This document shows, one piece after another, positions 50,362-63,613 of a DNA stretch of 64,000 nt. A program made the translations under genes and the position numbers. Positions within the stretch are counted from its first letter, which is position 1; each line of letters opens with the position of its first letter. The notes under the pieces were generated by a model that was given only the letters and a program-made list of their open reading frames with translations, had not been told where the DNA came from and did no database searches. Source of the DNA: Parcubacteria group bacterium Gr01-1014_30 (GTDB lineage Bacteria > Patescibacteriota > Minisyncoccia > Minisyncoccales > 2-12-FULL-40-12); assembly GCA_007376185.1 (NCBI GenBank), contig VMFS01000004.1, positions 165-64,164 on the forward strand, written 5' to 3'.

Positions 50362-50649
50362 GCCGCGGTAGCTCAATGGTAGAGCGCGTCCCTAAAGAAC
50401 TGCTCTTTGGGGCCTTCTATAGAAATATAGATTGAATAACTGGGTTAACTCGGGGAAACTTCTTTTAGAGAACAATCCCGAGCCAAGTCCCGAGATTTTA
50501 ATCGAGGGAAAGGTGTAGAGACTATCCCGAAAGGGAGTACTCTGATAAAAGTCAGGGGAAACGCCCAGCATCCAATATTTCCGGATGGTGATATAGTCCA
50601 AAATAAACGGAAGAGGACGGCGTTGGGTGTTCGATTCACCCCCGCGGCA
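50362..50649 (+). tRNA. Intron-containing tRNA, read as tRNA-Phe(GAA)
   Basis: Exon 1 (50362-50393) is GCCGCGG TA GCTC AATGGTA GAGC G CGTCC CT. Exon 2 (50610-50649) is GAAGA GGACG GCGTT GGGTG TTCGATT CACCC CCGCGGC A. The spliced product is a normal 72-nt cloverleaf. Confidence 0.75.
50394..50609 (+). ncRNA. Group I intron (216 nt) in the anticodon loop
   Basis: In P1, CCCT|AAAG pairs with CTTTGGGG, giving a U-G wobble at the 5' splice site. P2 is TCTATA-GAAA-TATAGA. The core string AAAGGTGTAGAGACTA followed by TCCC-GAAA-GGGA resembles the Azoarcus/IC3 catalytic core. The intron ends in G. Confidence 0.75.
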
Positions 50650-55571: not shown

Positions 55572-55658
55572 TGGTGCCCGGGGGGAGATTTGAACTCCCA
55601 CGCTCTTAAGAGCACAACATTTTAAGTGTTGATTGTCTACCTATTCCAACACCCGGGC
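55572..55658 (-). tRNA. tRNA-Leu(UAA), CCA encoded, no intron
   Basis: GCCCGGG...CAACA CTTAAAA TGTTG, variable arm TGCTCTTAAGAGCG, and GGGAG TTCAAAT CTCCC CCCGGGC A CCA. Confidence 0.88.
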
Positions 55659-56147
55659 ATGCTTTCTTTTACCCTTTCCTGAACGACCTCTGTGGTTTGG
55701 AGTCAAACTGTGACAATTTGGACATAGTATTCTCAAGTTTTCTAATCTATTATCATGCCTGTCGCCGTTTATGTGATCAAGTTCTAAGGGTAGATAACCA
55801 TTGACTGTTCTTTGTGCCCAACCGCACTGTTCGCAGTGCTCTGGTTTTAACCCTGTCTTGAACAATCTTTTCTTTAGCTTAAAACTTTGGAAATAGCTGT
55901 TCTCTACTAAAATTTTCTCTAGGGGAATTCTTGGTTTTCCAATACCGTGCATTCCCGCATTCCAACCCCGCCCCTTAAAGTGACGATTATCCAAGCCGTA
56001 TTCTTTAATATATTTTTTAATTTGTTCGTAGTTTCCTCCTGACTCGCGTAGACCCAATCTAGCTAAAACTTGGCGGTAACTGAATGAATCTTTAACAGCT
56101 TCAATTAGATGTTCTTTCGTCCAAGACCTATTATTTTTTCCCTTCAT
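55641..56147 (-). CDS. Free-standing HNH endonuclease
   Basis: CEQCGW...LELDHINGDRHDNRLENLRILCPNCH. The last 18 nt overlap tRNA-Leu(UAA). Confidence 0.85.
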   Translation of the reverse strand: MKGKNNRSWTKEHLIEAVKDSFSYRQVLARLGLRESGGNYEQIKKYIKEYGLDNRHFKGRGWNAGMHGIGKPRIPLEKILVENSYFQSFKLKKRLFKTGLKPEHCEQCGWAQRTVNGYLPLELDHINGDRHDNRLENLRILCPNCHSLTPNHRGRSGKGKRKHARVLE

Positions 56148-59575: not shown

Positions 59576-59666
59576 TGGCGGAGAGGGTGGGATTCGAACC
59601 CACGTACCTCTTGCGAGGTTAATCGCTTTCGAGGCGATCCCGTTTTGACCACTTCGGTACCTCTCC
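59576..59666 (-). tRNA. tRNA-Ser(CGA), CCA encoded
   Basis: GGAGAGG...ATCGC CTCGAAA GCGAT, a long variable arm, and GTGGG TTCGAAT CCCAC CCTCTCC G CCA. Confidence 0.88.
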
Positions 59667-60710
59667 GTATTTGTTTGTAAAATACGCTTTAAATTTATTA
59701 AAATGTTTAGGGTTAGATGAGCCTATTTCTTGGAAGTACCTCATAATCTCGTTTTCTTTTCTAAGAAATACGCTGAATTCTGTTTTTTGGGTAGGGTGTA
59801 AACCGAGCCTTTCCAGACTATTTTTAAAAAAACTTAGAATCGGTAAAGATCTATTTGTGAAATTCATGCCGCAGTTCAGATAGATTTTATCCTTATTTCG
59901 GTGGTAGTGTTTGTCAACGTAGAAACACCCGTCGGTATCGAATAGTCCTCTTAAACAATCTTTTATGAATTTCTCCGTTTGTTTTATCCATACAGGAACA
60001 TCTACTTGTTGCTTAACTTTCCCCCCTATTTTTAATCCGTTTTCTACGAGAAACCTAACCAATTCTGTACGTGATATCACAACTGCGATAGTAGAATCGT
60101 TCTTCTTGCCGTAATAAACCGAGGGCGTAACTCTAAAAAGTTTTACGAAAAGAGCTTCAACGTATTCTGAGTACTCTTTATCGTCATACTTATTCAGTGT
60201 AACGGTAACCTGGCTTTTCGTAATACCGCCGTCACCCAAAAGAATACCTATTAGTTCTGCAAGTCTGGTCGAAAGGATGGGTCGTTTGATAGGCTTTGTA
60301 ATCCCGATGACCAGGTTTTTTCGATATCTTCCTTCGTTTTCCCACCATTCATACCACCTTTTTTTGCGATACTCTGGGTCACCTCCAATCCTTCCATATT
60401 TTCTCACAACTGCCATCCATCCCTTTTTTGCTCCTTTGTTAACGTACCAGAAAGGTTCTTTGATTTGTATGTTTTCCGGAAAGGGTATCTTTGCCCTCCT
60501 ACATATTCGCTCAAGAGCGGGTAATGACATCAGAACTTTTTCTCTTCTCCAATCAGTCAACGATCTCATATGTACCCCAGCAAGTTTGGCAAATTCTTTT
60601 AACCTTAAATTTAACCTAGTTTGAGCATCTTTAAGGAACTTACTTTGCTCGCCTTCGGGAAACGCAATCCGCTTAAAGTACCCGTATTTTTTCTTATTCA
60701 GCTCAGGCAT
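59619..60710 (-). CDS. Free-standing LAGLIDADG homing-endonuclease-like protein with an N-terminal HTH
   Basis: Motifs LIGILLGDGGI and LRGLFDTDGCF, with an N-terminal HTH-like LKEFAKLAGVHMRSLTDWRR. The last 48 nt overlap tRNA-Ser(CGA). Confidence 0.85.
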   Translation of the reverse strand: MPELNKKKYGYFKRIAFPEGEQSKFLKDAQTRLNLRLKEFAKLAGVHMRSLTDWRREKVLMSLPALERICRRAKIPFPENIQIKEPFWYVNKGAKKGWMAVVRKYGRIGGDPEYRKKRWYEWWENEGRYRKNLVIGITKPIKRPILSTRLAELIGILLGDGGITKSQVTVTLNKYDDKEYSEYVEALFVKLFRVTPSVYYGKKNDSTIAVVISRTELVRFLVENGLKIGGKVKQQVDVPVWIKQTEKFIKDCLRGLFDTDGCFYVDKHYHRNKDKIYLNCGMNFTNRSLPILSFFKNSLERLGLHPTQKTEFSVFLRKENEIMRYFQEIGSSNPKHFNKFKAYFTNKYGEVPKWSKRDRLESD

Positions 60711-62402: not shown

Positions 62403-62816
62403 ATGGAAAACCAAATCAAAAACCAATTAATGCCTGACGAAAAGATTATTTGGGAAGGAAAACCAGATAAAAAATCTTTCCTTTTTATGGGGCCCTCTTG
62501 GTTCATTATTCCCTTCACTTTTTTGTGGTTTGGGTTTGCGCTATTTTGGGAAATAACAGCCTGGGCAAGCGGCGCACCTGTCTTCTTTTTGCTTTTTGGT
62601 GGATTATTTGTTGCCATGGGTTTTTATATTACGATTGGTAGATTTTTTGTCGCCAGTAGAGAATACGATAATCTCTATTATGTTCTTACAGATAAACGAG
62701 CTGTTATCCAACAAGGTATTTCTAATCTCGAGTTCCAGTCTGTTGATTTGAAAAAACTTAGCGACATTGAACTTCATTTCAAGTCTTTAACATCTTTGAA
62801 GGTATTCTCTCGATAG
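62403..62816 (+). pseudogene. PH-domain (bPH_2/YdbS-like) membrane protein, with a 3' end apparently replaced by the IS insertion
   Basis: MENQIKNQLMPDEKIIWEGKPD, two TM helices, and YYVLTDKRAVIQQG. The reading frame then runs into the IS end and stops at 62816. Confidence 0.5.
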
Positions 62817-63613
62817 AATTTCTTCTCATCTTCCCTGTGGCTTCTCTCCACGGCATCATTCTGAGCCGGTTTACCGGGATCGATCAGGTAGTGGATAATA
62901 CCTTGCTCAGCGCAAAACTTGTCCAAAGAATGTATCGTCTTCACCGTCATATCACTTCTTTTATTGGAACCCGTGTAGTAGTTGGTAAACGTGGAATGGT
63001 TATCCGTCTTAATGGCACGGACGCGATGGGGGAAAATCCCCAGCACTTCTTTCAGGAACAGTATTGAACGATAATTGGCCTGCTCATCATACACGGCCAT
63101 ATATCTCCATCTGGAAGCCGTATCAATGGCGGTATATCGGTAATATTGGCGTCTGGCAGCAGGTCCAGGCACGTATTTAACGTCTATCTCGATTAATTCA
63201 CCCGGCCTCCTCTCAGCTCTGATATATTTGTATTTGATTCTTTTAACCCTGTACTTACGGACCAGGCCCTCTTTCTTCAATATTTTGCCAATGGTTCGGG
63301 CGTGGATCTTAATACCTTCTTTCTCCAATTGCCAATGTATCTTCAGGGCGCATTTCTTTGTTTTCTCCCTGATCTCGACAACACGCTCTTTAAGCCAGAT
63401 CGGGGTTTCTACTCTGTAGGTTTTTGGTTCTGTGGATTTAGGCTCAAGGCCGGCTTCGCCATGCTTTCTGTATTCAGATACCCACCTTTCTAAACTCCTC
63501 TTGCCATAGGGACACACTCTTGCCGCATCAACCAGTTTGATCTCCTTATTGATTATCGGGAGCACCCACCTTAAACGCTCCTCTTTGATTGTTTTAGCCA
63601 TACATATTGCCAT
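62774..63613 (-). CDS. IS481-like DDE transposase (HTH plus rve integrase core)
   Basis: 279 aa. IDVKYVP...YTAIDTASRW...DNHSTFTN...PGKPAQNDAVERSHRE, with a GGAGAA SD. Confidence 0.85.
   Translation of the reverse strand: MAICMAKTIKEERLRWVLPIINKEIKLVDAARVCPYGKRSLERWVSEYRKHGEAGLEPKSTEPKTYRVETPIWLKERVVEIREKTKKCALKIHWQLEKEGIKIHARTIGKILKKEGLVRKYRVKRIKYKYIRAERRPGELIEIDVKYVPGPAARRQYYRYTAIDTASRWRYMAVYDEQANYRSILFLKEVLGIFPHRVRAIKTDNHSTFTNYYTGSNKRSDMTVKTIHSLDKFCAEQGIIHYLIDPGKPAQNDAVERSHREDEKKFYRENTFKDVKDLK

Follow-up and report, generated by a model that had tools for sequence, protein, structure and literature searches.

In the accessible text of Williams (bioRxiv 2020), the four classical types of bacterial tRNA group I introns (Leu.3Ug, Arg.5Ug, fMet.2Ug, and Ile2.5Ug; all IC3) were extended to 21. 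The name fMet.2Ug denotes an insertion after U33, and thus position 33/34 is a classical insertion site; Ile2.5Ug, the type of the Azoarcus intron, denotes an insertion after the fifth anticodon-loop nucleotide (36/37) and was likewise marked IC3 in that text. In the accessible parts of Nakagawa et al. (mSystems 2026, PMC13011429), a Phe(GAA) 33/34 intron was listed for Doudnabacteria GCA_016699995.1 (Table 1 and Table S3), being the single Phe 33/34 case among 95 complete genomes, and a Phe(GAA) 31/32 intron was also listed for Elusimicrobiota. According to the same parts, none of the tRNA introns of Patescibacteria was classed as IC and nearly all were IA, and precise in vitro self-splicing was shown for the Patescibacteria IA Asn/Asp 35/36 introns only.

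The tRNA-Phe(GAA) gene analyzed here was located at positions 50362–50649 (+) of the window (the whole 64-kb stretch of DNA under analysis), and a 216-nt group I intron separated its U33 from G34. The locus is very probably a functional Patescibacteria-type (CPR) tRNA-Phe(GAA) gene, split at U33/G34 by an ORF-less intron of IA architecture; we infer in addition that the intron is catalytic and that the locus serves as the working tRNA-Phe gene of the cell. The components of the split gene were as follows:

50362–50393 (+): tRNA-Phe 5′ exon, 32 nt, ending with CGUCCCU33 (GCCGCGGUAGCUCAAUGGUAGAGCGCGUCCCU) and containing the acceptor 5′ strand, D arm, anticodon-stem 5′ strand, C32, and U33
50390–50412 (+): P1, 9 bp, exon CCCU (50390–50393) plus intron AAAGA (50394–50398) with guide UCUUUGGGG (50404–50412)
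50394–50609 (+): group I intron, 216 nt, ORF-less, starting with AAAGA and ending with AAACG, of apparent subgroup IA architecture
50416–50431 (+): P2, UCUAUA-GAAA-UAUAGA, 6 bp, GAAA tetraloop
50440–50446 (+): P3 5′ strand, CUGGGUU, pairing with 50562–50568
50450–50481 (+): P4–P5, P4 UCGGGG/UCCCGA and P5 UUCU/AGAA
50482–50514 (+): P6 plus P6a/b, P6 GCC/GGU and P6a/b hairpin with tandem G·A internal loop
50518–50524 (+): P7 5′ strand, GAGACUA with bulged A50519, pairing with 50594–50599
50525–50536 (+): P7.1, UCCC-GAAA-GGGA
50540–50557 (+): P7.2, CUCUGA-UAAAAG-UCAGGG
50562–50568 (+): P3 3′ strand, CGCCCAG
50569–50587 (+): P8, CAUCC-(9-nt loop)-GGAUG
50594–50599 (+): P7 3′ strand, UAGUCC, invariant in the family
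50600–50609 (+): intron tail, AAAAUAAACG, 10 nt, ending in terminal guanosine ωG (50609)
50610–50649 (+): tRNA-Phe 3′ exon, 40 nt, starting with GAAGA and ending with A73 (GAAGAGGACGGCGUUGGGUGUUCGAUUCACCCCCGCGGCA)
50610–50612 (+): anticodon GAA at the start of the 3′ exon, followed by G37 and A38

The Doudnabacteria Phe intron and the window intron shared the same tRNA, anticodon, and insertion site, were both ORF-less (211 and 216 nt, respectively), had near-identical P3, P4, P6, P7, and tail CCAAAAU, and had G37 in common. The published Doudnabacteria sequence aligned with the window through P3–P7 and the P7 3′ strand, and thus the two introns were homologous, with the following differences: (i) the Doudnabacteria intron had one hairpin with conserved loop GUGAGCCCAACAAUAAU between P7 and P3′, while the window contained P7.1 and P7.2; (ii) the window intron had a longer P1, of 9 bp, in which 6 columns were inserted compared with the family alignment; and (iii) the guide changed with the exon, being GCCU/GGGC in Doudnabacteria and CCCU/GGGG in the window. 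The original prediction was aware of no bacterial group I intron in tRNA-Phe and of none inserted between positions 33 and 34; the former was anticipated by this homologous Phe(GAA) 33/34 intron (PMC13011429, accessible parts), and the latter by the long-known tRNA-fMet site fMet.2Ug (Williams 2020 and PMC13011429, accessible parts). The Patescibacteria Asn/Asp 35/36 introns resembled the window intron in phylum, IA-type architecture, frequent residence in the only copy of the tRNA, and general lack of endonuclease genes, but they differed in host tRNAs, in insertion site, and in the presence of endonuclease genes in some of them. The window intron adds one more case to the published pattern of ORF-less IA-type group I introns kept in Patescibacteria tRNA genes.

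Joining of the exons by hand gave a tRNA-Phe(GAA) of 72–73 nt, called by ARAGORN with a regular cloverleaf and discriminator A73, and the mature anticodon loop was CU-GAA-GA; the tRNA identity, the split after U33 by 216 nt, and the joined form were therefore as originally predicted. The split gene was absent from the output of default ARAGORN and of the Rfam tRNA model (15 tRNAs in the 64-kb window), and the ARAGORN intron mode detected it as 'tRNA-Phe (aaa) i(37,216)', with anticodon AAA and the intron at 37/38. Taken literally, this output would describe an intron at the canonical 37/38 position that is excised by a protein endonuclease plus ligase, a reading of almost negligible probability: it would put G instead of U at −1 and is rejected since neither the U•G rule nor the pair that was invariant in 106/106 homologues would then be preserved; moreover, the sequence fitted the full group I model (RF00028), and to our knowledge A34 is not expected in tRNA-Phe. 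Position 37/38 was also the sole anticodon-loop position without a group I intron in the accessible part of the published bacterial survey (PMC13011429). What allows the shift to 37/38 is that a single guide sequence can pair both with AAAG at the beginning of the intron and with GAAG at the beginning of the 3′ exon, as expected of a group I intron that forms P1 and P10; the 37/38 placement reflects the intron position modelled by ARAGORN, not an alternative splice site. Because default ARAGORN and the Rfam tRNA model skipped the gene and intron-aware ARAGORN misplaced the splice site, routine annotation would rate such a genome as having no tRNA-Phe, which affects completeness estimates of small-genome bacteria.

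Group I identity was supported by Rfam Intron_gpI (RF00028), which matched 50384–50609 from end to end of the model (1–253) with 65.1 bits (E=3e-14), above the gathering score of 50 bits; this covariance-model hit, proposed earlier as a check, was the sole RF00028 match within the 64-kb window. The conserved group I core was present, its P3–P8 and P4–P6 domains being linked through pseudoknots P3 and P7. The intron folded alone had −67.2 kcal/mol vs −52.6 ± 4.8 for shuffles (z = −3.05), and this single-sequence fold gave P1, P2, P3, P4, P5, P6a, P7.1, P7.2, and P8. The sole U•G of P1 was formed by U33 (50393) and G50409 and marked the 5′ splice site, in agreement with the P1 proposed originally. 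The original prediction also named a GAAA-capped P2, the core string AAAGGUGUAGAGACUA with a UCCC-GAAA-GGGA hairpin after it, and a terminal G, all of which could be read directly from the intron sequence, and no ORF was carried in the 216 nt. The loop G and last A of P2 were invariant across the intron family, and all 6 P2 pairs were compensatory. The first 5–6 nt of the 3′ exon (GAAGAG) were complementary to guide positions 50403–50408, and the resulting P10 was 6 bp long in the window. A P9 hairpin was absent from the window intron, in which the P7 3′ strand was followed by the 10-nt tail. P7 is taken here, from established knowledge of group I introns, to be the guanosine-binding helix.

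With this anatomy, splicing would involve the following steps: (i) P1 would form between the guide 50404–50412 and a strand made up of the last four nucleotides of the exon plus the first five of the intron, with U33 in the U•G wobble; (ii) free guanosine in the P7 pocket would attack after U33; (iii) the terminal G (50609) would then replace this guanosine in the pocket, and the guide would pair with the start of the 3′ exon as P10; and (iv) exon ligation would yield the tRNA with loop CU-GAA-GA, in which the anticodon stem could then form.

Species-representative genomes were scanned with a pattern composed of the P7 3′ strand, terminal G, GAARA, and T arm, which gave at least 119 loci; at least 107 among the 119 listed were tRNA-Phe(GAA) genes with a 195–336-nt intron after U33 (ARAGORN plus boundary rule). 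The comparison with tRNA-Phe genes of related genomes, as proposed with the original prediction, thus showed this intron at an identical position of tRNA-Phe in 107 or more species-representative genomes, which suggests that the Phe 33/34 intron is far more widespread than the lone published case; by its sequence, the window intron is placed in this published, widespread IA-type family at 33/34 of Patescibacteria tRNA-Phe(GAA). All 107 listed Phe loci had U at −1 and G as the last intron base, all 108 family members ended in G, and no listed family intron was long enough for an endonuclease gene. Among the matches listed, the closest introns had 73–84% identity to the window intron. Nearly all listed family records were Patescibacteria MAGs, and the host labels among the matches listed comprised Saccharibacteria, Paceibacterota, Doudnabacteria, Yanofsky-, Harrison-, Falkow-, Magasanik-, and Gracilibacteria, and others. 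Some family members (L012, L041, L049, L059, L080, L090, L092, and L113) came from MAGs labelled 'uncultured Gammaproteobacteria' or 'Nitrospirota'; either the labels of these bins are wrong, or the intron is not confined to Patescibacteria. The same pattern gave no match in viral contigs, and metagenome contigs queried with the 3′ exon of the window itself gave one contig, whose alignment to the window was the same as that of L061.

In 62/108 family members, P9 was missing and the ATAGTC motif was followed by a tail of ≤20 nt. In several relatives (L005, L013, L019, L026, L034, L044, L096, and others), the tail before the terminal G complemented the anticodon-stem strand of the 3′ exon, and the resulting helix spanned the 3′ splice site and mimicked the anticodon stem (window region compared: 50600–50615). 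A tail/3′-exon helix of ≥6 bp was found in 39/62 P9-less relatives with their own exon vs 3/62 with a foreign exon, while the window had 1 bp.

Covariation was examined in alignments made by MAFFT with explicit pair counts, with two sets of sequences: 35 window-type homologues and 106 aligned family sequences. In the 35 window-type homologues, the full structure was 93.1% paired vs 75.6% in shuffles and 34–52% with partners slid, 44/65 pairs were compensatory, and 0/500 shuffles reached any of five covariation measures, where the relatedness of the homologues makes the shuffle control overstate significance, so that more weight belongs to the slid-register control and to how many distinct pair types occur. 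Compensatory changes in this set were found in P1, P2, P3, P4, P5, P6a, P7.1, P7.2, and P8; P7.1 was 97% paired with 3/4 pairs compensatory, and P7.2 was 91% paired with 6/6. All 5/5 pairs of P8 were compensatory, its pairing being 73–83% of cells over the two sets because this variable hairpin was imperfectly aligned.

Across the 106 aligned sequences, the core was 97.0% paired, and P3 was 99.7% paired with 3 compensatory pairs. Over the two sets, P4 was 99.7–100% paired with 4 compensatory pairs; P5 was 79% paired in the 35 window-type homologues, with the window register one off the family alignment; P6 was nearly invariant, and every P6a pair was compensatory; all six P7 pairs were invariant in the 106 sequences, and P6 and P7, since they never vary, are conserved but uninformative on pairing. 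At the splice site, the pair was U•G in 106/106 homologues, and the exon and guide co-varied at −2 (CG 102/UA 4), −3 (CG 76/AU 29/UA 1), and −4 (GC 63/CG 41); a 4-bp exon/guide match was present in 96/108 introns with their own exon vs 40/108 with a random exon. The three exon nucleotides at −2, −3, and −4 also co-varied with the anticodon-stem 3′ strand. The cloverleaf plus P10 was 99.2% paired (106 sequences), the acceptor, anticodon, and T stems each showing compensatory changes, and P10 itself was 97.7% paired, the pairs of nucleotide 37 being C-G in 74 and U-A in 27.

Bacterial tRNA-Phe usually has A37, and the window tRNA-Phe had G37 (50613). Across the intron family, G37 was present in 74 and A37 in 27, co-varying with the P10 partner in the guide, and thus either position 37 is constrained by the intron or the intron by position 37.

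The window copy kept every catalytic-core position that was invariant across the 106 aligned sequences, and it displayed three departures (U50446, A50561, and G50588) at the 125 columns of ≥90% conservation, the family median being 2. U50446 faced C50562 as a mismatch at the inner end of P3, a pair that was G-C in 103/106. These departures, along with a tRNA census that spanned 64 kb of the genome only, would fit a decaying tRNA-Phe pseudogene with a dead intron in a cell supplied with tRNA-Phe by another gene; we consider such decay quite improbable, given that three departures lay near the median of two, that the invariant catalytic-core positions were all kept, that the exons were 97% identical to those of L042 and L061, that an identical split gene was present on the independently assembled ENA metagenome contig L002, and that no further tRNA-Phe was found by ARAGORN among the 16 tRNAs of the 64-kb window.

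Doubt on the efficiency of the second step in the window copy came mainly from its missing tail/3′-exon helix. The absence of P9 and of this helix and the weakened P3 end would accord with a genuine group I intron that has lost its 3′-splice-site-positioning elements and needs a protein cofactor or RNA chaperone in the cell, and some LAGLIDADG proteins, a free-standing gene for one of which lay within the window, act as maturases. Such dependence is nevertheless unlikely, since 62/108 family members were P9-less yet conserved, the window had a 6-bp P10 and an intact catalytic core, and nothing tied the LAGLIDADG ORF to the window intron. For the window Phe intron, conservation and covariation together strongly imply self-splicing.

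The subgroup was addressed by measuring how far the P7 3′ strand lies from the 5′ strand; the distance was 68 nt in the window because P7.1 plus P7.2 (33-nt module) was inserted. With subgroup labels taken from the accessible Table S5 of Nakagawa et al. 2026 (PMC13011429), this distance was (i) 35–49 nt in four IC3-labelled tRNA introns and 28 nt in one IB3-labelled intron and (ii) 75–76 nt in two IA1-labelled Asn introns and 62 nt in the published Doudnabacteria Phe intron. P7.1/P7.2 were not present in the IC3/IB3-labelled tRNA introns compared, in which P3′ directly abutted P7, and the sequence 3′ of the P7 3′ strand was 10–11 nt in the window vs 44–53 nt in the four IC3-labelled introns. 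The extra pairings between P7 and P3′ (50525–50536 and 50540–50557) had 9/10 pairs compensatory and a spacing as in the IA1-labelled introns. The presence of P7.1/P7.2 (or P7.1/P7.1a) as additional helices between P7 and P3′ is reportedly the hallmark of IA in the classification of Michel and Westhof. P7.1/P7.2 have been named class-defining peripheral elements (PMC3984707). Judged from P7.1 plus P7.2 and from the spacing, the window intron is assigned subgroup IA architecture. When the window intron was compared by BLAST with nine introns that were either subgroup-labelled or published, the matches were short and their summed scores did not distinguish IA from IC3, and the spacing and architecture were used instead.

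The core of the window intron had originally been likened to that of the Azoarcus tRNA-Ile(CAU) IC3 intron. These two introns are alike in being small, ORF-less, and tRNA-borne with the same chemistry, and the J6/7–P7 string of the Azoarcus intron is presumably similar to that of the window. In favor of an IC3 assignment, the J6/7–P7 string AAGGUGUAGAGACUA and the P4′/P6 string CAAUCCCGAGCCAAG were common to the window and the IC3-labelled tRNA-fMet(CAU) 33/34 introns of cyanobacteria and other bacteria, which occupy the same position after U33; because AAGGUGUAGAGACUA also occurred in these IC3-labelled introns, it did not discriminate between subgroups. The tRNA-fMet intron differed from the window intron in its tRNA, in P3′ abutting P7, and in a 44–53-nt P9 region preceding the terminal G, and by analogy the Azoarcus intron would be without P7.1/P7.2 and have P9. 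An Azoarcus-like IC3 intron is thus a highly improbable reading of a locus with the 33-nt P7.1-plus-P7.2 module between P7 and P3′, no P9, and a 68-nt spacing like that of IA1-labelled and unlike that of IC3-labelled introns, and Patescibacteria tRNA introns included no IC in the accessible parts of PMC13011429. The proposed IC3 resemblance was given up, and IC3 membership was ruled out on architecture (P7–P3′ spacing and no P9).

The IA-type family displayed two P7–P3′ modules (A2 alignment columns 305–375; window 50525–50561): among the 106 aligned sequences, 38 including the window had P7.1 plus P7.2, and 68 had a single hairpin with conserved loop GUGAGUCCCAACAAUAA. On a neighbor-joining tree from the other 166 intron columns, the module types were interleaved, with 11 switches vs ~31 for random labels, and this interleaving only hints at module exchange since the tree is short and noisy. 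Repeated swaps of the P7–P3′ module at one site might reflect intron recombination, possibly with phage, with the window as a stripped-down, P1/P10-reliant variant; this scenario is tentative, and we hold it for conceivable rather than likely. If it were true, module exchange would represent recombination among group I introns, possibly phage ones, and not purely vertical descent, and the window variant, having neither P9 nor a tail/3′-exon helix, would define both splice sites via the extended P1 plus P10.

Among phage IA-type introns, the second terminase intron of Vibrio phage vB_VpaM_R16F had 69% identity to the window intron over 186 nt and the same P7.1-GUAC-P7.2 layout, but it resided in a phage protein-coding gene and had a P9 hairpin. 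A phage origin of the window intron was considered and rejected, as a distant search of 50,697 phage records yielded no more than two matches, both terminase introns of Vibrio phage with 69% identity and the P7.1-GUAC-P7.2 layout, and the family pattern had no match in viral contigs. In this phage (L001, OP793884.1 81388–84559), the gene for the terminase large subunit was annotated as four CDS pieces; OP793884.1 shows one interrupted gene as four because the gaps hold three group I introns (84–94 bits).

The genes neighboring the split tRNA-Phe gene were cellular, encoding class I aminoacyl-tRNA synthetase, TsaD, 501-aa IF-2, class I ribonucleotide reductase, HtrA, and L19. Patescibacteria MAGs gave the best matches to the exons, intron, and flanking proteins (40–63% identity) and also to the arrangement of tRNA genes, Val(GAC) ... 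Phe ... Gly(GCC); from these exon, intron, flanking-protein, and tRNA-order matches, we infer a putative Patescibacteria-type host.

Free-standing HNH and LAGLIDADG ORFs adjoined other tRNAs in the window, as had been noted before: (i) a 168-aa HNH ORF (55641–56147, −) overlapped the start of an intronless tRNA-Leu(UAA) (55572–55658) in region 55572–56147, and (ii) a 363-aa LAGLIDADG ORF (59619–60710, −) overlapped tRNA-Ser(CGA) (59576–59666) in region 59576–60710. Both were free-standing homing-endonuclease-like genes immediately upstream of tRNA genes. A further ORF (62774–63613, −) was found near tRNA-Arg(CCU); its counterpart on contig L002 (14945–15736) had HTH_32 and rve (integrase/transposase) domains, and the ORF probably belongs to an insertion sequence.
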